Virus record (IMG/VR): IMGVR_UViG_2675903368_000016
DNA length: 37,585 bases
Reading direction: 5' to 3' (one strand)
Source of the DNA: a virus
Lineage: Duplodnaviria > Heunggongvirae > Uroviricota > Caudoviricetes
Below are positions 4,748 through 37,585 of this stretch, in pieces (positions within the stretch are counted from its first letter, which is position 1; every line of letters begins with the position of its first letter). The notes beneath the pieces were generated by a model that saw nothing but the letters and a program-made list of their open reading frames with translations, did not search any database and was not told where the DNA came from. Made by a program: the position numbers and the translations under genes.

Positions 4748-7700
4748 GCGTCGTATCCCCCCTGATCGCTGTAGTTACTCCTGGCTTTTGCCTTCAGCCT
4801 GCGTTCACGTTCATCAAGCTGGCGGGCCACCTCCCGCGCAATATCCTGCGCACTTTGTCCTGGCTGCGTCTGGATGATGATCTGCGTCGGTGCCTCAATC
4901 CTGTAAACGGGCGGCACAGTGGCTGCGCGACTCACAATTGCTTCTCCACCTTTCGCGGGAAGTGCCAAAGGGTGCAACGGTGGAAGCTCTGCTGGCGCGG
5001 CAGCAACGCCCATCATTCCGGCAACAACGGCAGCCAGTGCAGCTGTATTTCTCCGGCTGGTCACATTTGCCGGGCCGTTAACAATTTCCGGCCCGTTTTC
5101 ACCGACGATGCCAAACTGCCCGCGCGGGATATAGCCGCCGCTGTCATACATCCCCGCAAAGCCATATCCCCATGACGGAAAACCACCCGATGGCATCATC
5201 ACTTTACCGTCTGCATTCACCGTCGCAGGTTGCTGACGCGTCACGCTTTCCGGCAGTTTCGCCTTTGCAGCCTCTTTACTGACAATGCCGAGTTTCTCCA
5301 GCAACCAGGAAACGCCGGATTTCAGGGAGTCCAGCGGATGCATGACCATATTCAGCCCTTCCGCCAGTGCCTCCCCGAATCGTCGCCCCATTGCCGCTGC
5401 GCTCTGCAGTTCGGCAGAGGTCGACTTAACGGGCGTCAGCAGATCAGTAAACCAGCCCCACAGCGCCTGCACTTTGTCGCCAATCCACTGAAACACAGGC
5501 TTAAGTGGTTCGAATGCAGCACTGATAGGACCTGCCGCCGCTTTGAATCCTTCCACCACACCAGCGAGAAATGCGGTGATGGGTTGCCAGTATTTCCAGA
5601 CAACCAGCGCTACGCCCGCCAGTGCAGTAACCACAAGACCTATCGGACTGAGCAGAGCACCTAACAGACCAGATATGGCATACAGGGCAACGCGCAGCAT
5701 CGCCAGCGGACCGGATGCCAGTACTCGCAGCACCGCGCCTGCGGCAGCCAGTCCACCGCGTAGTGCTGCCAGTGGATTCATAAACATCATAGCAACAGCA
5801 CGTAAACCGGATAATCCAGACCGCAACAGTGCAACCGGCACACCTGCTACAGTTTTCAGGACATTCCCCGTCAGTGATGCGGTGCGGCGCAAAGACGACA
5901 ACGGCGCAGTAAGTAAACCCGCTGCGTTGCCCGATGAAGCAAGCCCGCGTCGCAGCAGTGCCAGTGGAGCGCCAGCTAACCAGGACAACGCGCTGCTGGT
6001 TCGTGTTACTGCTGCCGTAACGGAAGGTAACGTTTTGATACCCAGCACAGAGAATCCCAGACGGATGACTGCCAGCGGCCCCAGTACTGCAGCCAGCGCC
6101 ACCGCTAAGGTGCCGAGGCCTACGGTAACCGCAGCCACAACAGCCGCTACTTTCATCAGTGTGCCTGTCAGTTCCGGGTTAGCTTCCACCCAGCGGCGCA
6201 ACGCCCCCGTGATGCTTTTTACCGTGTACAGAATATCCATCAGCGGCTGGCGCAGCGTTTCGCCCAGGCTGCTGAAGGTGTTCTGCGCTCCGGTTTTGAC
6301 CAGCAACCACTGAGCGGAAAGTGAGTCTTTGTTGATGTCGGATTCTTTCTGCATGGAACCGAGCGCATCATTGCCCGCTGTCAGTTTTAGCTGGCGCTGC
6401 AGTTCCGGAAGGTTGTTTGCCAGTTTCGCTGCATCATCACCAAACTCTTTACCAAACAACATGGTCATGGCAGACAGACGCTTGTCCTGCGGCAGTGCGT
6501 TCACCTTCTCCAGCACACGCTGGATAGTTCCCATCGCATCCTTCGTCATCTGCTTTTCAATCACTTCAGGATTGAGTTTCAGCAGATTCATCCCTTCAAA
6601 GAAACTCTTGCTTTGCATGGTGGCAATGGACAATTCACGCACCATCGCGTTTGCTGCACTGGCTGCAACCTCCGGCGCAGCGCCCAGTGTCAGAAAGGTG
6701 GACCCCAGTGCCGCCGCTTTACGATAATCCAGACGGTCAGCCACACCGCCCAGACGTTGCATAACATCAATGATCTCCGCCCCTTTCGACATGGCGTTAT
6801 CATCCAGATAGTTCAGCGCATCGCCGAGCTGTTCAATATTGCGGGTAGGTATTTTGTAGAGCTGTGCGATTTTCCCCAGACTTTCTGACAGTTCATCCGC
6901 TGGCAGCTCAAAGGCTGTTGCCGCCTTTGCTGCCGTACTGGCGAAGGCCAGCAGGTCACGTTTCTGGTCTTCCCAGCTGTCGTCAGGGTTTGCGACGTTC
7001 ATGCGCGCACCACCTTCAACCAGTGCAGCGAAGTCCACCGCACCGTTTTCCATCGGCAACTGTTCGCTGGCAGCCTTGATGGCATCCTGCATTTCATAAA
7101 AACGTGCAGTGCGGTTACCATTATCGTCACGCAGACCATTGACCTGCTTTGCCACACCTTTCATGGCATCTTCCATGCTGGTATAGCTTTTTACTGCCGC
7201 CATCACTGGCGCACCCATTGCCAGCCCTGCAGCCGTGGTAGTGGCTCCGGCTCCTGCGATGCGATCGCGCACTTCAAGCCGTCTTGAGTATTGTTCTCTG
7301 GCAGCGTTCATCCGTGCCTGTTGTTCACCCAGACGTTTAAGTGCTTTTTGCTGGCCCTCCAGTGCCTGCCTTGTTTCTTCAGCATTTTTCTTAAGTTCTC
7401 GCTGGGCACTACTGAGTTGTCTGGTATCAATCCCTGATTCTTTAAGTGCCTGACGTTGTCTCTGGACCGCCCCCAACAAGCCGTTATAGGTCTGCTGAAG
7501 TTCCTGTACTCGTGTTTTGGCCTGACTGAATAACTTTGCCTGCGCGGCGGTTGGCCTGTTAGTGGCAGCAAATTGTGTGGCGAGTTTTGCCGCCTCTTCG
7601 CGGGCTGCGTTCAGGTTGTTGGCTGTTATGGCTAGTTGCGAGCGCGTCTTGCGAAATTCATCAATTCTGCCAGCCTGCTTATTCAGTTCTTTGAGGCTGT

Positions 7701-10144: not shown

Positions 10145-10717
10145 TCAGGGGGATTCATTACTCTTATTTGCCGGAAATTTTCTATAAATTGTGGAAACAC
10201 CCACATCAAAAATCAGTGCAATACGCTGTCTTGATTCTCCGGCCTCGAGTAAGCGTCCAATCTGTGCCCACTGTTCGGTGGTCAACTTAGGACGGCGTCC
10301 ACCTACTCTGCCTTTATCACGAGCTGCAGCCAGCCCCGCCCTGGTACGTTCAACTATCAGTTCGCGTTCCATTTCAGCCAGGGCCCCCATGACATGAAAA
10401 AAGAAACGGCCCATTGGGGTGCTGGTATCAATACTGTCAGTCAGGCTTCGGAAATTCACGCCACGCTGACGCAACTCTTCTATCAGCGTAACAAGATGCC
10501 GCATACTGCGCCCCAACCTGTCCAGCTTCCAGACAACCAGAGTGTCTCCTGCCGATAGTGTCCTGAGCAGTTTTTTAAGCCCCGGTCTGTCGGACTTAGT
10601 GCCACTGATTTTGTCCTCAAAAATCCGCTCACATCCCGCGCAGTTCAGTGCATTACGTTGCAAATCTGTGTTCTGGTCATTTGTTGACACGCGTACATAG
10701 CCAATAAGCATGATCAT
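10145..10717 (-). CDS. Serine DNA invertase, Hin/Gin/Pin/Cin family (copy 1)
   Basis: 190-aa ORF M(IM)LIGYVRVSTNDQNTDLQRNAL... with N-terminal catalytic Ser motif and C-terminal HTH; true start may be Met3. Confidence 0.9.
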   Translation of the reverse strand: MIMLIGYVRVSTNDQNTDLQRNALNCAGCERIFEDKISGTKSDRPGLKKLLRTLSAGDTLVVWKLDRLGRSMRHLVTLIEELRQRGVNFRSLTDSIDTSTPMGRFFFHVMGALAEMERELIVERTRAGLAAARDKGRVGGRRPKLTTEQWAQIGRLLEAGESRQRIALIFDVGVSTIYRKFPANKSNESP

Positions 10718-10738
10718 CTCCTTGAATAAAAATCGGGG

Positions 10739-11263
10739 ATGATGCCAGTTAGTCGTAATCGCTGCATTTTCTTATACGTTGGTTTGGGAGAAGGTTCGGC
10801 ATTACCCGTTGGTGTGCCTGTTCCATGGCCTTCAGCCACACCGCCAACAGGCTGGCTGAAATGCAACGGTGCGCCTTTTTCTGCAGAAGAATACCCGGAA
10901 CTGGCAAAGGCTTATCCAACAAATAAATTGCCTGATTTACGCGGTGAATTCATTCGCGGCTGGGATGATGGGCGCGGGGTGGATGCTGGTCGAGATTTGT
11001 TATCATCTCAAGGGGATGCAATAAGAAATATAACTGGAGGATTTAATATCAGACCTGGATCGAGCAGTGCTTTGATTACTTTCGCTGCTGGTGCTCTTAA
11101 AGTAGCATCAAGAGTTCAAAGTGCTTATGTCACAAACACTTCAGCCACTGACAAAATTGCTGAAGGTATAGACTTCGATGCCAGTGCTGCTCCTGGAGTT
11201 GTAACTGCATCTGAAAACCGTCCAAGAAATATCGCGTTTAACTACATTGTAAGGGCAGCATGA
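10739..11263 (+). CDS. Tail-fibre variable C-terminal module A (silent alternative receptor-binding domain)
   Basis: 174-aa ORF; after an 18-aa leader (MMPVSRNRCIFLYVGLGE) read from the invertase upstream region it continues ...PVPWPSATPPTGWLKCNGAPFSAEEYPELAKAYP, a tail-collar-type motif. Confidence 0.7.
   Translation: MMPVSRNRCIFLYVGLGEGSALPVGVPVPWPSATPPTGWLKCNGAPFSAEEYPELAKAYPTNKLPDLRGEFIRGWDDGRGVDAGRDLLSSQGDAIRNITGGFNIRPGSSSALITFAAGALKVASRVQSAYVTNTSATDKIAEGIDFDASAAPGVVTASENRPRNIAFNYIVRAA
10767..10792 (+). other. 26-bp invertase crossover site Z (hix/gix-like)
   Basis: TTTTCTTATACG-TT-GGTTTGGGAGAA, an imperfect dyad around a central TT; exact reverse complement of site Y. Confidence 0.7.
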
Positions 11264-11865
11264 TGAATAAAGTTGTATTAAATAGTGAGCTTATTGCTAC
11301 AAAGGCGGGGAGTGTTACCGTTTATAATTATGATGGCGAAACACGGGAATATATTGCCACATCAACTGAACATCTTGCTGTCGGTGTCGGTATCCCGGTA
11401 TGTTCTTGTTTAGATGCTCCGAGCTCAAACAAAGCTGGTTATGCAATCTGCCGTTCGGCAGATTTAAACTCATGGGAATATGTGCCAGACCATCGCGGTG
11501 AAACGGTCTATAGCACCGAAACAGGAGAATCAAAAGAAATCACCGCTCTGGGTGATTACCCTGAAAATACAACCACTATCGCCCCGTTAACGCCATATGA
11601 TAAATGGAATGGTGAAAAATGGGTGGCGGATACTGAGGCACAGCATAGCGCCGCAGTAGAAGCGGCAGAAGCACAGCGCCAGTCACTGATTGATGCTGCA
11701 ATGGCTTCCATTGGTCTGATTCAGCTGAAATTACAGGCCGGACGGAATCTGACGCAGGCAGAAACCGCCAGACTTAACGCTGCGCTGGATTACATTGACG
11801 CGGTGACGGCAACAGATACCAGCACGGCGCCGGATGTCATCTGGCCTGAACTGCCGGAGGCGTAG
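11260..11865 (+). CDS. Tail-fibre assembly chaperone, module A
   Basis: 201-aa ORF immediately after module A; conserved chaperone-type C-terminal end (...APDVIWPELPEA). Confidence 0.7.
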   Translation: MMNKVVLNSELIATKAGSVTVYNYDGETREYIATSTEHLAVGVGIPVCSCLDAPSSNKAGYAICRSADLNSWEYVPDHRGETVYSTETGESKEITALGDYPENTTTIAPLTPYDKWNGEKWVADTEAQHSAAVEAAEAQRQSLIDAAMASIGLIQLKLQAGRNLTQAETARLNAALDYIDAVTATDTSTAPDVIWPELPEA

Positions 11866-12277
11866 GCCATTCAATATCTGGCGCACTGGAAGTATCGACC
11901 AGTTCCAGTGCGTCCAGATAATCCAGCCACAAATTATATTGCGCCAGTTCCTCACCTTTCAGGCGACCAATCGCCGCTTTACCAGGCCATTGCTTACTGT
12001 GTGTGTATTCGTTGACCTGATTAATCAATTGCTGCTTTTCCAGTTCGGCTGCGGCAATTTGTTCCTCATGAGTTGGCGGTGGAATATCAATCCATGCAGG
12101 CATTCCGTCGATGACACCTCTGTATTTTCCTTCTGGTGCTTCCTTCATAAATTCGGCGGCAACAGTGTCGTCAATTTCGATTCCATCACCGGGCCATTCG
12201 CCGGATTCCTGATAAGCGATTTTAAGCTCCACAGGGAAAAACGCATTTTTATCGGCACTGAAAATATATTTCTGCAT
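11837..12277 (-). CDS. Tail-fibre assembly chaperone, module B (full length)
   Basis: 146-aa ORF MQKYIFSADKNAFFPVELKIAY... convergent with chaperone A; C-terminus ...APDIEWPTPPAVQAR. Confidence 0.7.
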   Translation of the reverse strand: MQKYIFSADKNAFFPVELKIAYQESGEWPGDGIEIDDTVAAEFMKEAPEGKYRGVIDGMPAWIDIPPPTHEEQIAAAELEKQQLINQVNEYTHSKQWPGKAAIGRLKGEELAQYNLWLDYLDALELVDTSSAPDIEWPTPPAVQAR

Positions 12278-12279
12278 TT

Positions 12280-12678
12280 CTACCGTCCTATCGAAATATA
12301 ACTGAATCTGTATTGCTGTGAGATATCACTGGTTGCCACACGCCACGCTGAATTACTGATATGTTCAAAATTTACAGACAAAACCTGCGGGGCAGGATTC
12401 GACGGGGCTGACTGAACGGCATCAGACATAACACTGACTGAAACCATCGGCTGATTAGGGAATGGTATAGGGAAGTGTCCACTGATAAAGCGGGTCGTGT
12501 TTCCTGAAAAAGTGCCAAACTGAACAATATATCCACCTGGTAGCCTGAACCATCCCGAACCAGAAGCGAATGCTCCCATATCCGGTATCTGATTATCTCC
12601 TGTGCCCACATCCCTTTTCGCCGCTTCTCCCAAACCAACGTATAAGAAAATGCAGCGATTACGACTAACTGGCATCAT
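12280..12678 (-). CDS. Tail-fibre variable C-terminal module B, stand-alone duplicate copy
   Basis: 132-aa ORF with the same 18-aa leader, then a sequence identical to the C-terminal 114 aa of H. Confidence 0.6.
   Translation of the reverse strand: MMPVSRNRCIFLYVGLGEAAKRDVGTGDNQIPDMGAFASGSGWFRLPGGYIVQFGTFSGNTTRFISGHFPIPFPNQPMVSVSVMSDAVQSAPSNPAPQVLSVNFEHISNSAWRVATSDISQQYRFSYISIGR
12625..12650 (-). other. 26-bp invertase crossover site Y (hybrid site)
   Basis: Plus strand TTCTCCCAAACC-AA-CGTATAAGAAAA; left half identical to site X, right half identical to reverse-complement Z, with identity switching at the central AA. Confidence 0.7.
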
Positions 12679-12699
12679 CCCCGATTTTTATTCAAGGAG

Positions 12700-13443
12700 A
12701 TGATCATGCTTATTGGCTATGTACGCGTGTCAACAAATGACCAGAACACAGATTTGCAACGTAATGCACTGAACTGCGCGGGATGTGAGCGGATTTTTGA
12801 GGACAAAATCAGTGGCACTAAGTCCGACAGACCGGGGCTTAAAAAACTGCTCAGGACACTATCGGCAGGAGACACTCTGGTTGTCTGGAAGCTGGACAGG
12901 TTGGGGCGCAGTATGCGGCATCTTGTTACGCTGATAGAAGAGTTGCGTCAGCGTGGCGTGAATTTCCGAAGCCTGACTGACAGTATTGATACCAGCACCC
13001 CAATGGGCCGTTTCTTTTTTCATGTCATGGGGGCCCTGGCTGAAATGGAACGCGAACTGATAGTTGAACGTACCAGGGCGGGGCTGGCTGCAGCTCGTGA
13101 TAAAGGCAGAGTAGGTGGACGCCGTCCTAAGTTGACCACCGAACAGTGGGCACAGATTGGACGCTTACTCGAGGCCGGAGAATCAAGACAGCGTATTGCA
13201 CTGATTTTTGATGTGGGTGTTTCCACAATTTATAGAAAATTTCCGGCAAATAAGAGTAATGAAGTATTTTCCTTCTGGTGCTTCCTTCATAAATTCGGCG
13301 GCAACAGTGTCGTCAATTTCGATTCCATCACCGGGCCATTCGCCGGATTCCTGATAAGCGATTTTAAGCTCCACAGGGAAAAACGCATTTTTATCGGCAC
13401 TGAAAATATATTTCTGCATTTCTACCGTCCTATCGAAATATAA
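12700..13443 (+). CDS. Serine DNA invertase copy 2, C-terminally fused to 59 aa read antisense through a truncated chaperone gene
   Basis: First 188 aa identical to copy 1 (nucleotide identity 12625-13263 = reverse complement of 10154-10792); diverges after ...FPANKSNE. Confidence 0.8.
   Translation: MIMLIGYVRVSTNDQNTDLQRNALNCAGCERIFEDKISGTKSDRPGLKKLLRTLSAGDTLVVWKLDRLGRSMRHLVTLIEELRQRGVNFRSLTDSIDTSTPMGRFFFHVMGALAEMERELIVERTRAGLAAARDKGRVGGRRPKLTTEQWAQIGRLLEAGESRQRIALIFDVGVSTIYRKFPANKSNEVFSFWCFLHKFGGNSVVNFDSITGPFAGFLISDFKLHREKRIFIGTENIFLHFYRPIEI
13264..13419 (-). pseudogene. Truncated tail-fibre assembly chaperone B (first 52 codons only)
   Basis: Sequence identical to the 5' end of the 11837-12277 gene, then abruptly joined to the 3' end of invertase copy 2. 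Confidence 0.7.
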
Positions 13444-14828
13444 CTGAATCTGTATTGCTGTGAGATATCACTGGTTGCCACACGCCACGCTGAATTACTG
13501 ATATGTTCAAAATTTACAGACAAAACCTGCGGGGCAGGATTCGACGGGGCTGACTGAACGGCATCAGACATAACACTGACTGAAACCATCGGCTGATTAG
13601 GGAATGGTATAGGGAAGTGTCCACTGATAAAGCGGGTCGTGTTTCCTGAAAAAGTGCCAAACTGAACAATATATCCACCTGGTAGCCTGAACCATCCCGA
13701 ACCAGAAGCGAATGCTCCCATATCCGGTATCTGATTATCTCCTGTGCCCACATCCCTTTTCGCCGCTTCTCCCAAACCAAGGTATGAGAGAAGACCAGCG
13801 ACATCCTTTCCACTCAAATTAGTCAGCGTATTGTCCAGCGGTTGTTTACCTGCCAGCGCATTAAGCATTGTCGTGGCAAAGTTCGGATCATTCCCCAGTG
13901 CCGCCGCCAGTTCGTTCAGTGTATCCAGTGCAGCAGGTGCAGACCCCACCATTGCTGCAATTGCCGATTTCACAAAAGCCGTGGTGGCAATCTGTGTATT
14001 GTTAACCGACTGTGCGGCAGTGGGGGCTGTTGGCGTTCCGGTGAGTGCCGGACTTGACAGCGGCGCTTTCAGTGCCAGCGCATTGTTAATGGTGGTACTG
14101 AATTTCGGATCATTGTTAATGGCTGCGGCTAATTCTTTCAGCGTGTCCAGCGTGGCTGGCGCACCATTAATCAGGGCCGTCAGTGCCGCCTGAACAAACG
14201 CGGTGGTCGCAACCTGCGTGGTGTTATTCCCTGCCGCTGGCGTTGGCGCTTTTGGTGTCCCGGTAAACGTCGGACTTTCTTTCTGTGCATACTGTGAATG
14301 CGGGTCCGGTGCGGCAAGATGTTTTGCCATCTGATCATCCACGTACACCTTCAGCTCCAGTACCTTGTCATCCACATACTTGCGGGTTGCCAGCACTACG
14401 GCAGGGTCGATTTTCAGGGTGATATTGTCCGTGCTGCTGGTAATCAGCACCATGCGCACGGTCTGGGTACGCCCGCTGCCTTCAGCCAGTTGCGGTTTAT
14501 AGCTTTCCGGGCAGTTCCCCACGGCAATCAATGCCCCTGACTCATCAAACAGGCCCACTTCACGTATCCACCAACCGCCCTCGTTTTCAGGGATCACCTG
14601 TTCAGCAATAATCTGGCTGCTGTTCTGCGGGTCGATATAGAGCATATTCAGCGCAGCCCGGCGTTTCTCATTTACCAGTGCCGTCTGCTTTGCGTCCGGC
14701 GTCGGCAATGCTCCGCCGCCATCGCCCACCGCCATATGGGTAATTTTTAGCGGCACACCGAGCGCGGCGGCGCTGGCAAGTTTCGCCGCGCCAATATCCG
14801 TCAGCAGGGTATAAAATTTTGTGCTCAT
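13422..14828 (-). CDS. H: Tail fibre protein gpH, currently carrying variable module B
   Basis: 468-aa ORF; constant N-terminal part with repeated ...TTAFV...APA.LDTL.ELAAA... motifs, then LGLGE junction and module B C-terminus. Confidence 0.85.
   Translation of the reverse strand: MSTKFYTLLTDIGAAKLASAAALGVPLKITHMAVGDGGGALPTPDAKQTALVNEKRRAALNMLYIDPQNSSQIIAEQVIPENEGGWWIREVGLFDESGALIAVGNCPESYKPQLAEGSGRTQTVRMVLITSSTDNITLKIDPAVVLATRKYVDDKVLELKVYVDDQMAKHLAAPDPHSQYAQKESPTFTGTPKAPTPAAGNNTTQVATTAFVQAALTALINGAPATLDTLKELAAAINNDPKFSTTINNALALKAPLSSPALTGTPTAPTAAQSVNNTQIATTAFVKSAIAAMVGSAPAALDTLNELAAALGNDPNFATTMLNALAGKQPLDNTLTNLSGKDVAGLLSYLGLGEAAKRDVGTGDNQIPDMGAFASGSGWFRLPGGYIVQFGTFSGNTTRFISGHFPIPFPNQPMVSVSVMSDAVQSAPSNPAPQVLSVNFEHISNSAWRVATSDISQQYRFSYISIGR
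13767..13792 (-). other. 26-bp invertase crossover site X inside H (constant/variable junction)
   Basis: Minus strand TTCTCTCATACC-TT-GGTTTGGGAGAA; half-sites match at 10 of 12 positions; encodes the LGLGE junction. Confidence 0.7.
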
Positions 14829-17320: not shown

Positions 17321-17767
17321 TCACCCCGCCAGCCATTGCAGAATCATGTCGCGGGTCATTGCCTCAACATCATCATTTACACCCAGAAGGCGACGCTCTG
17401 CGTAACGGACCTCCGGTCCTTTGCGGCTGACGCGATCACGTAAGCCGTAGTGATGAACACGGGCAATGCGCTGTACCTTGCCTTCAAACTGCACGCTGGC
17501 AGAGTCGGCGCTGGCGGCAGTTTTCAGGTATTTTGTGGTGCGCAGCTTTGTAAACATCTGACGTTTGATGCGCCCCTTTTTGCTGCGTGCTGTTACCCTG
17601 CGCGGCTCATAACTGCTGCCATCAGGATTGCGCTGCATCCTGATGTTCTGCTGCTGTGTCCGGCGCAGTTCCTGCGCCAGCTGGCGCATCATGCGGCTTC
17701 TTGCGGCTGGCTCCAGATTCGCCAATAATGCACTCAGCCAGTTGTCCACCTTCTGCAGTTCAGCCAC
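17321..17767 (-). CDS. S: Tail completion protein gpS
   Basis: 148-aa ORF; P2 order R-S-V. Confidence 0.75.
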   Translation of the reverse strand: MAELQKVDNWLSALLANLEPAARSRMMRQLAQELRRTQQQNIRMQRNPDGSSYEPRRVTARSKKGRIKRQMFTKLRTTKYLKTAASADSASVQFEGKVQRIARVHHYGLRDRVSRKGPEVRYAERRLLGVNDDVEAMTRDMILQWLAG

Positions 17768-26082: not shown

Positions 26083-26110
26083 AAGTTAGCGAATAAAAAT
26101 CATTAGCATA

Positions 26111-26131
26111 GGCCGCAAACTGAGCGGCCTT
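26111..26131. terminator. Bidirectional hairpin terminator between Q and the convergent accessory operon
   Basis: Stem AGGCCGC / GCGGCCT with loop AAACTGA; T-rich tracts on both sides. Confidence 0.45.
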
Positions 26132-26136
26132 ATTCA

Positions 26137-26406
26137 TTACCAATTTCTTTTTTCGGAGTTTAGCCAATCACCGCATGGATAATATCTTGACGCCCATTCA
26201 CCTTGTAAACGAGCTACAAACAGAATATCGTTACTATCGACCCTGGCTTGGAGTCCGTCACGCAGTTGAGTTGCGGTCAGCGTTGTATCTACTAACCAAA
26301 ATGATTCAAGATATTTACAGTATGTAAATTGCTTTAGATAGTCAAAAACTTCATCGTAGTTTCTTCCCGGAGCCTTCAAGTCATAGGTTATACAATAAAT
26401 AGCCAT
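26137..26406 (-). CDS. Hypothetical 89-aa protein, accessory cassette gene 4
   Basis: ORF MAIYCITYDLKAPGRNYDEVFDYLKQF...; AT-rich; 4-nt gap to the upstream gene; no confident family assignment. Confidence 0.55.
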   Translation of the reverse strand: MAIYCITYDLKAPGRNYDEVFDYLKQFTYCKYLESFWLVDTTLTATQLRDGLQARVDSNDILFVARLQGEWASRYYPCGDWLNSEKRNW

Positions 26407-26409
26407 TCT

Positions 26410-26655
26410 CTAAGCTCCGCATTTTTTATCATTTGGGGAACATCTTAACCTGCGACATTTGCGGCAATACGATTGAGGGATCAGCCGCTCTCCTTCCATA
26501 GTTCTAAAACCAAACACTTCTTCAATTTTGTTCAAATCACCACTTGCAATAACCCCACAGCAGGGGCAGACAGCCTCAATTTGAAATGCCATGTCTATCT
26601 CCATTCCACATGTTGAATGTAGGGTAATACTTCCTTTCAAGCAAAAATGAGACAA
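26410..26655 (-). CDS. Small zinc-ribbon protein, accessory cassette gene 3
   Basis: C-P-C-C-G ... C-R-K-C-R-R...C...C cysteine pattern; probable true start at internal MAFQIEAV (about 60 aa). Confidence 0.5.
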   Translation of the reverse strand: MSHFCLKGSITLHSTCGMEIDMAFQIEAVCPCCGVIASGDLNKIEEVFGFRTMEGERLIPQSYCRKCRRLRCSPNDKKCGA

Positions 26656-26827
26656 GGATCTTGAAACCTAATTTAAACTTGCTTGCGCGCGCTCGTATCC
26701 CCGCCACGCCTGCCCGCTTTATGTAGTAGTTTTCATGCAGGTGCATGATCTACGCGAAAGCCCGCCAGTTCTGGCGGGCCCTAGCAAAAACGATCCTCAA
26801 ACGATCATGCGATCTCATGCAGCATAG

Positions 26828-27559
26828 TCATGCACGATCATTTGACTCAGCATCTGCTGCACGCTTGCTGCGCGAAGATGCACTTTTACTATCAATCTTT
26901 CGACAGTTCTTTCTATCCCTGGCTTCATTTTCTTTAAATTTGTTATATGTCTCAGTATCAAAAAACGAAATTGTTTCAACCTCATCTTTTGGTATGAGCA
27001 CACGGAAATCTTCGATATTAAGCCGAGACATTCCACTTATCACACCACTATCAAGATAATGTTGGTGATAGTTAGTCGTGATACTAATCGTTAGATCATC
27101 TTTATCCCGATATCCGCTTAACATCGGGAGAAGTTCAAGGTGCTCTGAAAGCCCGTTTTCTAACGCCGGACAAGTAACAAGACCAACATAGATTTTGCGA
27201 GACGACAGAGTTGCTATGATCGGAAACTGTCTTGCGGACGCTTCCATGAGTAATGATTCGAAAGCGTTATTACCCACAGCTTTAGCTAAGGCATCCCAGC
27301 GACGATCTCCACGTGATGTGCGTAACTTATTTCCAAAACCTGAAATCGCAGCGAGGACAATTGAAATCATAACCCATGCTATCTGTTTGATTTCATTTAT
27401 TCTTTGAAGTTTGTCTTTCGATGAAGACAACATGCCATTAAAACTGTCAGGTGTTAGATTCAAGGCATTAGCCAGCCAACGAAACCCTCCGCTGACGTTC
27501 AAAATAAAGGTGAAAAAACCGCCAAGGAGAAAAAAAAACGATACCCCAGGCAGCCACAA
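26828..27559 (-). CDS. Membrane protein of unknown function, accessory cassette gene 2 (distal frame)
   Basis: 243-aa ORF with hydrophobic segments (FFFLLGGFFTFIL; IAWVMISIVLAAISGF) and a charged C-terminal domain; no ATG at the reported start. Confidence 0.55.
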   Translation of the reverse strand: MWLPGVSFFFLLGGFFTFILNVSGGFRWLANALNLTPDSFNGMLSSSKDKLQRINEIKQIAWVMISIVLAAISGFGNKLRTSRGDRRWDALAKAVGNNAFESLLMEASARQFPIIATLSSRKIYVGLVTCPALENGLSEHLELLPMLSGYRDKDDLTISITTNYHQHYLDSGVISGMSRLNIEDFRVLIPKDEVETISFFDTETYNKFKENEARDRKNCRKIDSKSASSRSKRAADAESNDRA

Positions 27560-27671
27560 AAAAATAAGCGTCCCAGCCGTTGGAACGCTTATATCGGTAT
27601 CTTGTTGAAAGTGATAGGTTTACATAAATAAAACCACTAACCAAAATCACTGCTAAAAGTAATGTTGCCAT
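27468..27671 (-). CDS. N-terminal transmembrane segment ORF, probably the 5' part of the same membrane-protein gene in another frame
   Basis: 67-aa ORF MATLLLAVILVSGFIYVNL...; its ATG overlaps the stop of the upstream 71-aa gene (TAATG); joins the 243-aa frame at a T7/T9 homopolymer region. Confidence 0.45.
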   Translation of the reverse strand: MATLLLAVILVSGFIYVNLSLSTRYRYKRSNGWDAYFFVAAWGIVFFSPWRFFHLYFERQRRVSLAG

Positions 27672-27886
27672 TATCTGGTTCTATTAGTTTTCTCTTTTAC
27701 AGTGCTCGTTTTGATGCCTTCAAGCTTATCCATCTGTGCCTTGATGGCATCCATTGCTCTTTTGTTAGACAAGTCTACGGACACAAAACCATCTTTACTA
27801 AGATTGAGTTTGTCCTGGTTCTCTTTAAGAACCCTTGCCAGACGTTCAACTGGGTTACCCAGGCTAAATGCGGCGATGCTTGACAT
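27671..27886 (-). CDS. Hypothetical 71-aa protein, accessory cassette gene 1
   Basis: ORF MSSIAAFSLGNPVERLARVLKENQDKLNL...; first gene of the leftward AT-rich operon. Confidence 0.5.
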   Translation of the reverse strand: MSSIAAFSLGNPVERLARVLKENQDKLNLSKDGFVSVDLSNKRAMDAIKAQMDKLEGIKTSTVKEKTNRTR

Positions 27887-28156
27887 AACTCCCCCTTTTC
27901 ACATGGCGCGGAAGTCTACACTCCGACGCCTACAACCTCAACAGATTATCTTTAAAATTTAGACAACAATATCATCTGTTGATTGCGTTACTTAAACTTA
28001 AGTTCAATGCGCTCGATCATGCAAGCTGTTTCTTAAGAACTGTTAATTTCCTGGCATATATAGTGGTTAAGGTAACAAATTGACACTAACGCCTCGCATA
28101 GCTCGTTGTTCAACCTTGCTGACGCCAGAAGCAAGTTCAGACGCCAGCAACGTTTC

Positions 28157-28390
28157 TTAATGCAGCCAGCTGTCGTCTTCCCACACCTTCTGCATAATTT
28201 TCATCACTTGTTTTCTTTCTTCGTCCAGTTGCAATCCGGTCAGTTCCACACCGTTAGAGCTACCTTTGCGGATACGAATTACCGTTTTGGGATACAGAGG
28301 ACGCAGATTGCGGTAAAGCTCGGATTCAAGGGCGTCCAGGGTAGACTGGCTAATCTTCTGCTCTTTATCGATCATTATTTCAATGCGCAT
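28157..28390 (-). CDS. DinI-family protein (186 Tum-like SOS-inducible anti-repressor module)
   Basis: 77-aa ORF MRIEIMIDKEQKISQSTLDALESELYRNL...KIMQKVWEDDSWLH resembles E. coli DinI along its length; downstream of a LexA box. Confidence 0.75.
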   Translation of the reverse strand: MRIEIMIDKEQKISQSTLDALESELYRNLRPLYPKTVIRIRKGSSNGVELTGLQLDEERKQVMKIMQKVWEDDSWLH

Positions 28391-28401
28391 AAAAAGTCAC
28401 C

Positions 28402-28590
28402 TCAACTGATGACATCCATTGAGCGGTTGTATTCGTGGGTTCTGATTTTTGCCATGAGTTCATCTGTTAGTTCAGAAACCCACTGCAAAGCCAGCCCCTT
28501 CTCTTCATCACTACACTCACTAGCCGCTACAAGCTTAAGAAAAAAATCAATGCGCTGGAGCTTCAAAGACTCCAAAAAATAGTCCTGCAT
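28402..28590 (-). CDS. Small protein co-transcribed with the DinI-like gene (possible Tum N-terminal module)
   Basis: 62-aa ORF starting 42 nt downstream of the LexA box and ending 11 nt before the DinI-like gene. Confidence 0.5.
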   Translation of the reverse strand: MQDYFLESLKLQRIDFFLKLVAASECSDEEKGLALQWVSELTDELMAKIRTHEYNRSMDVIS

Positions 28591-28631
28591 CTTTCCTCCT
28601 ATGACACCAAAGCAATACTGTAAATATAACC

Positions 28632-28650
28632 ACTGTTTATATTTACAGTA
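28632..28650. promoter_or_regulatory. LexA operator (SOS box)
   Basis: aCTGTttatatttACAGta matches CTGT-N8-ACAG with an AT-rich spacer; a second CTGT half-site sits at 28617-28620. Confidence 0.75.
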
Positions 28651-28741
28651 TATAATAATCTTACTGATGTAAAACGTTTTTTACGTTCATCAGCCTGATA
28701 TGCCTGGTATTATTAAGAGCACGAATTGTTAACCCGCGTAA

Positions 28742-34156: not shown

Positions 34157-34753
34157 ATGTCAACATCAAAGTACCCAAGTGAGATCAAAATAAATCCCAA
34201 TAAAGGTGGTAAGGCTGCGATTGAGCGATTAGTCGAAGCCTATGGCTTTACGACACGACAGGCTTTAGCTGATCACTTGGAAGTATCAAAAAGCACACTA
34301 GCGAACAGGTATTTGCGGGATACATTTCCTGCTGACTGGATAATCCAATGTGCTCTTGAAACAGGAACCTCCCTCAAATGGTTAACTACCGGACAAGGCC
34401 TTAAGCAAAGCTCGCTGACAGCAGCTACAGAAGAGCTTGTTAAGTTTCGCCTTGCCGCAGGCAAAATGATTGAAGACGGTTCATATGTCTTCGATTCATC
34501 ATTTCTTCCTGCAAACCTTTCATCACCAATTGTTGTTCAGGATGGACTCGTCACATACATTTGTGATCAAAAATTTTCTGAAGTACTTGATGGAAACTGG
34601 TTAATCAATATCGACGGAACCTATTCCATTCGAAAAATCACAAGGCTTCCTAAAGGAATGATTAAAATTACAACGGCAGAGAATAGCTTTGAATGTGCAT
34701 TTTCTGATATTGAAGTGGTTGCTTGTATAAGAAGTACAATAGTCTCGAATTAA
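34157..34753 (+). CDS. cI: CI-type immunity repressor
   Basis: 198-aa ORF with N-terminal HTH (TTRQALADHLEVSKSTLANR), divergent from apl and upstream of int. Confidence 0.7.
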   Translation: MSTSKYPSEIKINPNKGGKAAIERLVEAYGFTTRQALADHLEVSKSTLANRYLRDTFPADWIIQCALETGTSLKWLTTGQGLKQSSLTAATEELVKFRLAAGKMIEDGSYVFDSSFLPANLSSPIVVQDGLVTYICDQKFSEVLDGNWLINIDGTYSIRKITRLPKGMIKITTAENSFECAFSDIEVVACIRSTIVSN

Positions 34754-34773: not shown

Positions 34774-36450
34774 ATGAATTCATTTGCCATCGTTATACTC
34801 TTATTAGCATTTCTCGCCCCTGTTCTAGCTGTAATATTATTTAAACAAAGTAAAAAACACAAAGCGGCTATAGATAACCTGACAGCTAACAACATAGCCC
34901 TTTCTAACCAACTGATTGAAAATCAAGAAAAACTAGCACAGACCGTACGAGAATTATCAGAGCTTGAAGGGCGAGCAGCACCATTGTGGCAATACGAAGA
35001 ATTGCACAGCGCAGTAATGGATGCAGAGAATAAGATAAAAAATGCGGACTCAATAGCCAAGCAAAAAATAGATGAAGCCCAAATTAAGGCGGCTAAAACA
35101 GTAAACGAAGCAAATTATCAAGCTCAGATGACAATAAGCAACGCTAATAGCGAAGCTATAGCAATCACCAAAGACGCTCGCGATGCACGCCTGAAAGCCA
35201 AAGAACGTCTTGATAATGCTAATAATAAAGCAAATGAGCTAATCTCAAATGCTAATGACAATGCAGTAAAAATTATTTCTGATGCAGAAGAAAGAGCAAA
35301 GGAGATTGCTGGTTCAGCATATGAAGCTAAAGAGTTTGCAGAAAAATATGAAGCAGTTGCAAAATCAATGAAAAATAAAATTGAAGGTTATGGTGATGAA
35401 TGGATCATCCCTAACCGTAGTGTACTTGATGAGCTGGCAGAAAATTATGAATTTACAGATGCAGGCAAGGAATTACAAAAAGCCAGAGAGTTAACCAAAT
35501 CATTAATAAAAACTAATAAAGCTGCTTCGTGTGATTATGTTGAGCAAAACAGGCGTAATACTGCCATAAACTTTGTTTTGGATGCCTTCAATGGAAGAGT
35601 TGACAGTATTTTATCAAAAGTCAAACACAACAATTTTGGAAAACTTTCCCAAGAAATAAAAGATGCATTTCAACTAGTAAATTACAATGGCTCTGCCTTT
35701 AGGTCCGCAAAAATAAGTGACATCTATCTTCAGGCAAGACTCAACGAGCTAAAATGGGGTGTAGCAGTTAATGAAATTATGCTCGAAGAAAAAGAAGAGC
35801 AAAGAAGGATTAAAGAACAGCTTCGTGAAGAGGAAAGAGCTCGTAGAGAATATGAAAAAGCGATAAAAGAAGCTGAAAAAGAAGAAAAAGCTATTCAGCA
35901 AGCTATAAATAAAGCAACGAAAGAACTTATGCTTGCAAATGAAGAACAACGCTTAGCTTTAGAGCAAAAAATAGCTGAACTACAGTTAAAATATGAAGAA
36001 GCTGAAGCTAAAAATCAACGAGCTATTTCTATGGCTCAACAAACCAGATCAGGCCACGTCTATATCATTAGTAATATTGGTTCATTTGGCGAAGATGTAT
36101 ATAAAATTGGAATGACACGCCGCCTTGAACCACTTGATCGTGTTCGTGAACTCGGAGATGCTAGTGTTCCTTTTTCGTTCGATGTTCATGCGATGATTTA
36201 TAGTGATGATGCACCATCATTAGAAAACCATCTGCATAAAGTTTTCAACGAAAAGCAGGTCAATAAAATTAACTCACGAAAAGAGTTTTTTAACGTAAAT
36301 TTAAAAGAAATCAAATCAGTTATTGAAGACATGAACATCAACGCCCACTGGACAATGTTTGCAGAGGCGAAAGAATATAGAGAGTCTCTAGCTATTGAGC
36401 AGGAGCGCAAAGCAGCCACTTCCGCCAACGATGAACTACATGTTGCTTAG
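34774..36450 (+). CDS. Membrane-anchored coiled-coil protein with C-terminal GIY-YIG-like (T5orf172-type) domain; lysogeny-operon moron
   Basis: 558 aa: N-terminal TM helix, long coiled coil rich in A/E/K/N, C-terminal GHVYIISN...YKIGMTRRLEPLDRVRELG...; AT-rich; 20 nt after the cI stop. Confidence 0.7.
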   Translation: MNSFAIVILLLAFLAPVLAVILFKQSKKHKAAIDNLTANNIALSNQLIENQEKLAQTVRELSELEGRAAPLWQYEELHSAVMDAENKIKNADSIAKQKIDEAQIKAAKTVNEANYQAQMTISNANSEAIAITKDARDARLKAKERLDNANNKANELISNANDNAVKIISDAEERAKEIAGSAYEAKEFAEKYEAVAKSMKNKIEGYGDEWIIPNRSVLDELAENYEFTDAGKELQKARELTKSLIKTNKAASCDYVEQNRRNTAINFVLDAFNGRVDSILSKVKHNNFGKLSQEIKDAFQLVNYNGSAFRSAKISDIYLQARLNELKWGVAVNEIMLEEKEEQRRIKEQLREEERARREYEKAIKEAEKEEKAIQQAINKATKELMLANEEQRLALEQKIAELQLKYEEAEAKNQRAISMAQQTRSGHVYIISNIGSFGEDVYKIGMTRRLEPLDRVRELGDASVPFSFDVHAMIYSDDAPSLENHLHKVFNEKQVNKINSRKEFFNVNLKEIKSVIEDMNINAHWTMFAEAKEYRESLAIEQERKAATSANDELHVA

Positions 36451-36532: not shown

Positions 36533-37585
36533 ATGGCAGTACGAAAACTAACCACAGGGAAATGGCTTTGCGAATGTTACCCCGCCGGACGAAGTGGGCG
36601 TCGTGTGCGTAAACAATTCGCCACCAAAGGCGAAGCACTGGCTTTTGAGCGCCACACGATGGAAGAAACCGAAGCAAAGCCCTGGCTGGGTGAATCAGTG
36701 GATCGTCGAACACTGAAAGACGTGGTTGAGCTATGGTTCAAACTACATGGTAAATCTCTGACAGCTGGGCAGCATGTCTATGACAAATTGCTGTTGATGG
36801 TTGACGCTCTGGGCAATCCTCTTGCAACCGATCTCACCTCTAAAATGTTTGCCCACTATCGAGATAAACGCCTGACAGGCGAGATCTACTTCAGCGAGAA
36901 ATGGAAGAAAGGAGCAAGCCCGGTCACCATTAACCTGGAGCAAAGCTATCTAAGTAGTGTTTTTAGCGAACTATCCCGTCTGGGCGAATGGTCGTATCCG
37001 AACCCACTGGAGAACATGCGAAAATTCACCATCGCAGAAAAAGAGATGGCATGGCTTACCCATGAGCAGATTGTTGAATTGCTGGCTGATTGCAAACGTC
37101 AGGACCCAATTCTGGCACTGGTAGTTAAGATATGCTTAAGCACAGGCGCACGCTGGCGTGAAGCCGTAAATCTTACCCGCTCACAGGTGACCAAATACCG
37201 AATTACCTTTGTCAGAACGAAGGGGAAGAAAAACAGAAGCATCCCTATCAGTAAAGAGCTTTACGAAGAGATCATGGCGCTTGATGGGTTCAATTTCTTC
37301 ACAGACTGCTATTTTCAATTTTTATCCGTGATGGAAAAAACGTCTATCGTGCTCCCTCGCGGTCAACTCACACACGTTCTGCGCCATACGTTTGCGGCGC
37401 ACTTCATGATGTCGGGTGGAAACATTCTGGCCTTACAAAAAATTCTCGGACACCACGATATAAAAATGACTATGCGTTACGCACATCTGGCACCGGATCA
37501 TCTAGAAACGGCGCTCCGTTTCAATCCTCTGGCAACGCTGCCAAGTGGCGACAAAGTGGCGGCAGCGGTTGGCATTACCCCGTAA
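36533..37585 (+). CDS. int: Tyrosine integrase (P2/186 family)
   Basis: 350-aa ORF with ...LSTGARWREA...LRHTFAAHFMMSGGNILALQKILGHHDIKMTMRYAHL... (conserved R...H-x-x-R...Y residues); stop is the last codon of the window. Confidence 0.9.
   Translation: MAVRKLTTGKWLCECYPAGRSGRRVRKQFATKGEALAFERHTMEETEAKPWLGESVDRRTLKDVVELWFKLHGKSLTAGQHVYDKLLLMVDALGNPLATDLTSKMFAHYRDKRLTGEIYFSEKWKKGASPVTINLEQSYLSSVFSELSRLGEWSYPNPLENMRKFTIAEKEMAWLTHEQIVELLADCKRQDPILALVVKICLSTGARWREAVNLTRSQVTKYRITFVRTKGKKNRSIPISKELYEEIMALDGFNFFTDCYFQFLSVMEKTSIVLPRGQLTHVLRHTFAAHFMMSGGNILALQKILGHHDIKMTMRYAHLAPDHLETALRFNPLATLPSGDKVAAAVGITP

Follow-up and report, generated by a model that had tools for sequence, protein, structure and literature searches.

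Tail-fibre host-range switches are known from phage Mu (G segment, invertase Gin), phage P1 (C segment, Cin) and e14 (P segment, Pin). In these systems, a serine invertase is combined with 26-bp sites of a 12+2+12 layout, in which two imperfectly symmetrical 12-bp half-sites enclose a 2-bp core. One site lies within the tail-fibre gene and the other beside the invertase gene. The Min system of p15B contains six sites. The invertases of the Gin/Cin/Pin/Hin family require a Fis-dependent recombinational enhancer, which lies in the 5′ part of the invertase gene (PMC3798978). In a P2-like prophage of enteropathogenic Escherichia coli (EPEC) E2348/69, three inverted repeats were reported, along with three alternative C-termini and four variants that coexist (Goldberg et al. 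2014, PMC4272514). The IMG/VR virus record IMGVR_UViG_2675903368_000016, a stretch of 37,585 nt called the window here, is a P2-like E. coli prophage that adjoins ybjL and extends up to the integrase stop codon. It carries a tail-fibre switch with the type of invertase, the site layout and the site placement of Mu, P1 and e14. Unlike the Mu/Gin system, the window also displays a further crossover site and a second invertase copy; together with the duplication that contains them, these are probably spurious and no real feature of the DNA.

The whole anomaly comes down to one extra 1142-bp piece (12122–13263), which is visible as two exact repeats. An inverted repeat (10154–10793 and 12624–13263) covers 640 nt, and a direct repeat (12122–12638 and 13264–13780) covers 517 nt with a period of 1142. 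Both pairs are 100% identical, and no other long repeats were found in the window. The extra 1142-bp piece corresponds to the invertase-proximal junction of the flipped isomer, with arms of ~0.52 kb and ~0.63 kb around the core of site Y. Both junctions of the switch, cassette B/site/H and cassette B/site/invertase, are present in the window. The joint 13263/13264 is the only sequence of the structure that is foreign to both normal isomers. It gives invertase copy 2 a 59-aa read-through along antisense tfaB, within an open reading frame (ORF) of 247 aa. Neither end of the 1142-bp unit (13263/13264 and 10153/10154) splits a codon; the ends follow invertase codon 188 and tfaB codon 52, which is a coincidence of approximately 1 in 9.

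Deletion of 12122–13263 in silico restored the canonical module. Inversion between the cores of sites Z and X in silico produced a perfect tandem repeat of 2 × 1142 bp (10154–12437). As far as the sequence goes, the anomaly fits two descriptions equally well: a tandem duplication in the flipped isomer followed by one inversion, or a flipped-isomer junction pasted into the canonical module. The initial annotation lacked this unifying description. Its three 26-bp sites, with Z as the exact reverse complement of Y, and its direct repeat of the cassette-B end were all recovered at the same positions. Its second, identical invertase gene in inverted orientation needs correction: the repeat is 640 nt and not 639 nt because an extra flanking base matches by chance, and copy 2 lacks the last two codons and the stop codon. 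The joint was rightly described as free of microhomology, but it lies after chaperone codon 52 and not at it, since codons 1–52 are retained.

The joint was searched for in 5426 complete E. coli genomes, 50,697 phage records, IMG/VR, the GTDB representative genomes, the JGI metagenomes and an index of 15 billion proteins. BLAST of the 200-bp joint against the E. coli genomes and phage records returned half-matches only. The 32-mer scans of IMG/VR, the GTDB representative genomes and the JGI metagenomes showed no match to the joint. Exact matches in the protein index were found neither for the products of the joint-crossing ORFs (247, 245 and 78 aa) nor for the 132-aa cassette-B ORF at site Y.

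Many E. coli genomes contain the same module with one invertase in ~3.78 kb. The module of LR-33 (NZ_AP027523.1) is colinear with the window minus 12122–13263, at 95–96% identity. The exact 468-aa H protein also occurs in GCA_001284645.2, a public draft genome whose module has a single invertase and two sites. The 15.4 kb that it shares with the window are identical except for the extra piece and one single-nucleotide polymorphism (SNP) at 17323, outside the module. The comparison with related prophages, which had been proposed as a check, gives a plain single-invertase module in both LR-33 and GCA_001284645.2. The SNP at 17323 makes or removes the stop codon (17321–17323) of the tail completion gene S, whose product has 148 aa in the window and 154 aa in GCA_001284645.2; the 148-aa form is the common allele, present in 1123 blocks of the collection.

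The 201-bp cassette B/site/invertase context of site Y was present in 497 of the 5426 complete E. coli genomes at a coverage of at least 80%, and the cassette B/site/H context of site X was present in 250. Both switch orientations thus occur among E. coli genomes. Site Y is the ordinary invertase-proximal junction of any flipped isomer and not an abnormal hybrid. X and Z have the inner half-site and core in common, so every normal flip sets cassette B beside the invertase-side half-site. Y had been called a recombinant site because its identity with X switches at the central AA. This switch is present, and Y does carry the signature of invertase exchange. It is less informative than claimed, since X and Z are alike over the whole 14 nt: the exchange position within these 14 nt is not narrowed further, and an ordinary flip gives the same picture of X and Y. 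A change of identity right behind the core AA fits invertase exchange and says nothing of an abnormal event.

Two further arrangements were observed in related prophages. IS-type transposase genes (DDE_Tnp_1) and an acyltransferase gene (Acyl_transf_3) lie in the tail-fibre inversion segment between the chaperone genes of L089 (14840–17169) and L091 (14885–18207). In E. coli bR_120_Kylling (locus L001; NZ_CP182374.1, 2233576–2242790), two facing invertase genes bracket one invertible segment. Two gene sets for sheath, tube and tape-measure proteins diverge on its two sides, and their protein accessions differ. The arrangement resembles a chromosomal inversion in which two P2-like prophages recombined via their crossover sites.

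The same module was compared in an IMG/VR sample of 80 loci (L005–L084) that encode close homologues of the window invertase. One invertase with two sites was found at 57 of the 80 loci, and two invertase copies at three (L008, L023 and L077). The copies of L008 and L077 face each other and are diverged, unlike those of the window. The facing invertases of L077 are merely 79% complementary; no repeat was detected between the two invertases of L008, so its copies must be well diverged. Module duplications of 100% identity were found only at L023 (UViG_2698536335_000014) and L051 (UViG_2747843111_000001), two independent scaffolds whose blunt joints are single Ns. L023 contains a 912-nt inverted and a 799-nt direct repeat with a period of 1697, in the topology of the window. 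Its sole N, at 5837, is located exactly on the joint, its extra piece is roughly centred on the crossover core (~0.80 + ~0.90 kb), and its outer inversion in silico gave a 1696/1697 tandem repeat. L051 has Ns at 2523 and 5198, and a 100% identical copy (949 or 641 nt) begins directly after each of them. The duplications of L023 and L051 are false duplications in a public viral database, and they are liable to mis-annotation as extra invertases or extra sites.

A contig end was located at most 5 kb away on the segment side of the invertase at 24 of the 80 loci, and contigs of several loci (L039, L051, L061 and L070) stop no more than ~60 nt from a crossover site. Assemblies regularly break in the module, presumably because the cultures are of mixed orientation. 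A third site-like sequence without a 100% duplication was found at L061 (38, 1971 and 4119), L071 (3164, 4498 and 4870) and L082 (111, 1444 and 2156). L071 and L082 have two direct sites beside the invertase, 372 and 712 nt apart. They may be real three-site modules like that of EPEC. The third match of L061 is located at the contig start, in a stretch of 52 nt that copies the site region exactly in inverted orientation, and may be a contig-end artefact.

We consider the 1142-bp piece to be an assembly false duplication from a mixed-orientation culture, with a probability of about two in three, and we infer that the joint 13263/13264 is an assembly join. The sequenced culture would have held both switch orientations, and the assembly would consist of the canonical unflipped module plus the piece 12122–13263 from the flipped isomer. 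The flipped cassette B/site/invertase junction would have been extended by about half a kb each way and abutted without overlap at the joint. The third site, the second invertase and the duplication would then be absent from any single DNA molecule. Gap closing, concatenation of contigs or a false duplication of two 'haplotypes' from long reads could leave an abutment without an N. Three marks of such an artefact are present: the copies are 100% identical, the deletion restores the structure of near-identical relatives, and the piece is the junction of the alternative isomer. The N-joined duplications of L023 and L051 demonstrate that mixed-orientation cultures yield false duplications in this module. 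The initial annotation had named an assembly chimera as the scenario that would refute it. That scenario is now favoured because the joint was found nowhere else, the one-SNP relative has the plain module, and the L023 and L051 duplications sit at single-N joins. The sequence facts of the initial annotation were confirmed, and its interpretation was supported in part.

Several points weigh against a false duplication. No N was found at the joint or anywhere else in a scan of the whole window, unlike L023 and L051, and an abutment without an N has to be assumed. A pure de Bruijn path takes whole graph edges and not partial arms of 0.5–0.6 kb, so the artefact needs an extension, scaffolding or overlap-layout step. 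A real tandem duplication followed by one ordinary inversion gives the identical sequence, and the two cannot be separated on sequence alone. It is possible but unlikely that the window is such a real strain-private variant, in which homology-free illegitimate joining produced a 1142-bp tandem duplication in the flipped isomer and one Z × X inversion followed. The unit would run from the invertase, short of its final 9 nt, through site Z and cassette B to tfaB codons 1–52. The perfect tandem repeat after the in-silico inversion argues for this history, which requires just one rare event and one routine inversion. The window without any N also speaks for it, and the complete identity of the copies and the single SNP against the canonical relative fit a very recent duplication. 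A natural three-site P2-like module with four variants is known from EPEC E2348/69 (PMC4272514). Against a real duplication, the joint had no support in any collection searched, whether genomes, phages, metagenomes or proteins. A fixed kilobase-scale tandem duplication at a given locus is far rarer than assembly problems in this module, where 2 of the 80 IMG/VR loci show false duplications, both N-joined, and this difference favours an artefact. Real exact repeats of 517 and 640 bp would normally break a short-read assembly. The near-centring of the piece on the crossover core is unexpected for a random duplication; in the window as in L023, it fits a junction that was lengthened by roughly an insert length on both sides.

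Other real routes to the structure are very improbable. The action of the invertase at quasi-sites was rejected, since the partners at the joint have no common dinucleotide for a serine-recombinase core exchange and neither of them is half-site-like. Integration of a 1142-bp one-site circle into X needs two rare events. Recombination with the module of a second prophage finds parallels in L001, with its order invertase/segment/invertase between two diverging tail gene sets, and in L008 and L077, each with two diverged facing invertases. This route was also rejected: the copies of the window are 100% identical, in contrast to the 79% complementarity of L077 and the undetected repeat of L008, and no second-prophage DNA lies beside copy 2. 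Two artefact routes were rejected as well. A fold-back or missed-adapter palindrome does not fit inverted arms that are 1830 nt apart and a joint that is no symmetry point. A pure de Bruijn mis-traversal needs a shared k-1-mer at the joint, and none is present.

If the assembly explanation is true, false duplications of this kind mimic extra recombinase genes, extra sites, truncated chaperones and fusion ORFs, and such records mislead annotation and scans for 'novel' switches. The artefact would also show that the switch was flipping in the sequenced culture. It is doubtful that a real duplication across the invertase-proximal site, then flipped, made a module with four isomers, three sites and two invertases, biased 3:1 toward cassette B, out of a two-state switch. 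Its seed may have been an abortive double-strand cleavage at the site, with fill-in from the sister copy and end joining. A real duplication would be a snapshot of the birth of a multi-site inversion system such as Min of p15B or the EPEC module, at a stage when the duplicated cassette has neither diverged nor been replaced. A single tandem duplication over a crossover site would then suffice to make a binary switch multi-isomer, a modest but instructive natural intermediate.

The isomers of a real duplication were simulated. Inversions gave four reachable isomers, with H products of 468, 468, 510 and 468 aa; three are H-B and one is H-A. Directly downstream of H, the observed isomer has the tfaB that is cut off after codon 52; the only intact tfaB lies on the same strand farther downstream, beyond the antisense invertase copy. 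The truncated tfaB follows H in two cassette-B isomers, in one of which the intact tfaB faces away from H. Inversion between Z and Y had been expected to be silent, but in the simulation it turns the only intact tfaB away from H. Excision of an X/Y circle with a complete invertase gene had also been predicted. This does not hold, as the ORF lacks its last two codons, and the literature on this enzyme family, including papers on the Hin mechanism, describes deletion between direct sites as disfavoured, with inverted sites preferred. A real unit would be lost chiefly through RecA recombination between the 517-bp direct repeats.

The underlying element is a standard tail-fibre host-range switch of the Gin/Pin type, with the already known classical Gin/Cin/Pin architecture. 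Its core parts are one serine invertase, two inverted 26-bp sites and two head-to-head cassettes (HvA-tfaA and HvB-tfaB). Z adjoins the invertase, X is located within H, and canonical relatives have exactly these two sites. Inversion is predicted to exchange the cassettes on the constant part of H, and both fibre C-termini (H-B and H-A) are in frame in the simulated isomers. The invertase is a small serine recombinase of the Gin/Cin/Pin/Hin group, with the Pfam domains Resolvase (7e-53) and HTH_7 (1.5e-15). It matched the Mu Gin structure PDB 3uj3 with E = 3e-93 over residues 3–186, and a count from this alignment gave ~75% protein identity to Gin. These matches and the 12+2+12 sites bear out the original assignment to a Gin/Cin-type tail-fibre inversion module. 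The predicted catalytic serine lies in the conserved N-terminal motif YVRVSTxxQ, and the stretch GYVRVSTNDQ aligned to Gin residues 4–13; the crystallised Gin has Ala at the serine position. The gene has 71% nucleotide identity to Mu gin, and its 5′ enhancer-equivalent region likewise only 71%. The coordinates of the module are listed in Table 1.

Table 1. Parts of the tail-fibre inversion module and of the extra piece in the window.
Feature	Position	Strand	Description
Invertase copy 1	10145–10717	-	190-aa ORF; relatives are annotated from the second ATG (188 aa)
Site Z, invertase-proximal	10767–10792	-	Reverse complement is TTCTCCCAAACC-AA-CGTATAAGAAAA; exact reverse complement of Y
Silent cassette A (HvA)	10793–11263	+	Pfam Collar domain; becomes the C-terminus of H (510 aa) after Z × X inversion
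Chaperone tfaA	11260–11865	+	201 aa; Pfam Caudo_TAP 3e-32
Chaperone tfaB	11837–12277	-	146 aa, sole full-length copy; Pfam Caudo_TAP 1.2e-33
Extra 1142-bp piece	12122–13263		tfaB codons 52–1, cassette B, site Y, invertase copy 2 minus the final 9 nt
Cassette B (HvB), copy unfused to H	12280–12624	-	100% identical to 13422–13766; Gp53-like_C
Site Y	12625–12650	+	TTCTCCCAAACCAACGTATAAGAAAA; cassette B/site/invertase junction
Invertase copy 2	12700–13443	+	Residues 1–188 as copy 1, without the last two codons and stop; 247-aa ORF
Truncated tfaB directly downstream of H	13183–13419	-	52 native codons and 26 unrelated residues; sub-threshold Caudo_TAP match
Blunt joint, invertase 3′ end/tfaB codon 52	13263–13264		No microhomology, no shared dinucleotide
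Tail-fibre gene H	13422–14828	-	468 aa, constant part and cassette B; Pfam Phage_tail_fib 3e-65 and Gp53-like_C
Site X, inside H	13767–13792	+	TTCTCCCAAACCAAGGTATGAGAGAA, that is, TTCTCCCAAACC-AA-GGTATGAGAGAA

Sites X, Y and Z follow the pattern TTCTCCCAAACC-AA-(G/C)GTAT(G/A)AGA(G/A)AA, with the 12+2+12 layout of Mu gixL/gixR as read from the Mu record. The 14-nt inner half and core, TTCTCCCAAACCAA, occurs exactly three times in the window with 2 mismatches allowed. The mean in the shuffled window was 0.26 occurrences, and none of 100 shuffles got to three. The gene tfaB is annotated as tail fiber assembly protein in the relatives L002 and L004. The translation of H (window ~13836–14186, minus strand, residues ~215–331) contains two tandem copies of a ~50-aa motif, ATTAFV...LDTL.ELAAA..NDP.F.TT..NALA.K.P, which is presumably a fibre shaft repeat. 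Promoter-like sites in a scan of the module were at chance level, and terminator-like matches in the same scan were unconvincing.

Two other regions of the prophage were noted. A 558-aa protein (34774–36450, plus strand) is encoded between the CI repressor (34157–34753) and the integrase (36533–37585). It has DUF4041 and T5orf172/MUG113 domains and matched the PADLOC PD-Lambda-1 anti-phage defence models with E = 2e-120; its gene has the look of defence cargo carried at the prophage's immunity end. The trio of CI repressor, 558-aa protein and integrase is 100% identical in several E. coli genomes. The region 26100–28700, from the portal gene to the large replication gene, contains solely short or unassignable ORFs, and those of 243, 158 and 104 aa had no match in Pfam or PADLOC. 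This region may be a variable cargo hotspot.

Among the known systems, the closest to the module of the window are the switches of Mu, P1 and e14 and the common single-invertase modules of P2-like E. coli prophages. As in Mu, head-to-head cassettes each carry a Caudo_TAP chaperone, and the gene order matches S-U-U′-S′-gin of the Mu record. Unlike Mu, P1 and e14, the host element is a P2-like prophage adjoining ybjL, and the core dinucleotide is AA, in contrast to TC/GA in gix. If real, the module would resemble that of EPEC in its three sites and four interconvertible isomers. In EPEC and in Min, there is one invertase and each added site brings a different C-terminal cassette. The third site of the window, unlike theirs, carries an identical cassette B and a second invertase and adds no new specificity, with two distinct C-termini among the four simulated isomers. 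L023 and L051 have the same module with 100% inverted and direct duplications, an extra piece that spans the flipped-isomer junction and a tandem repeat after in-silico outer inversion; their joints are marked by a single N, and that of the window is without one. The prophages of LR-33 and GCA_001284645.2 have the same genes, sites and insertion beside ybjL, and the window differs from them solely by the 1142-bp piece and its blunt joint.

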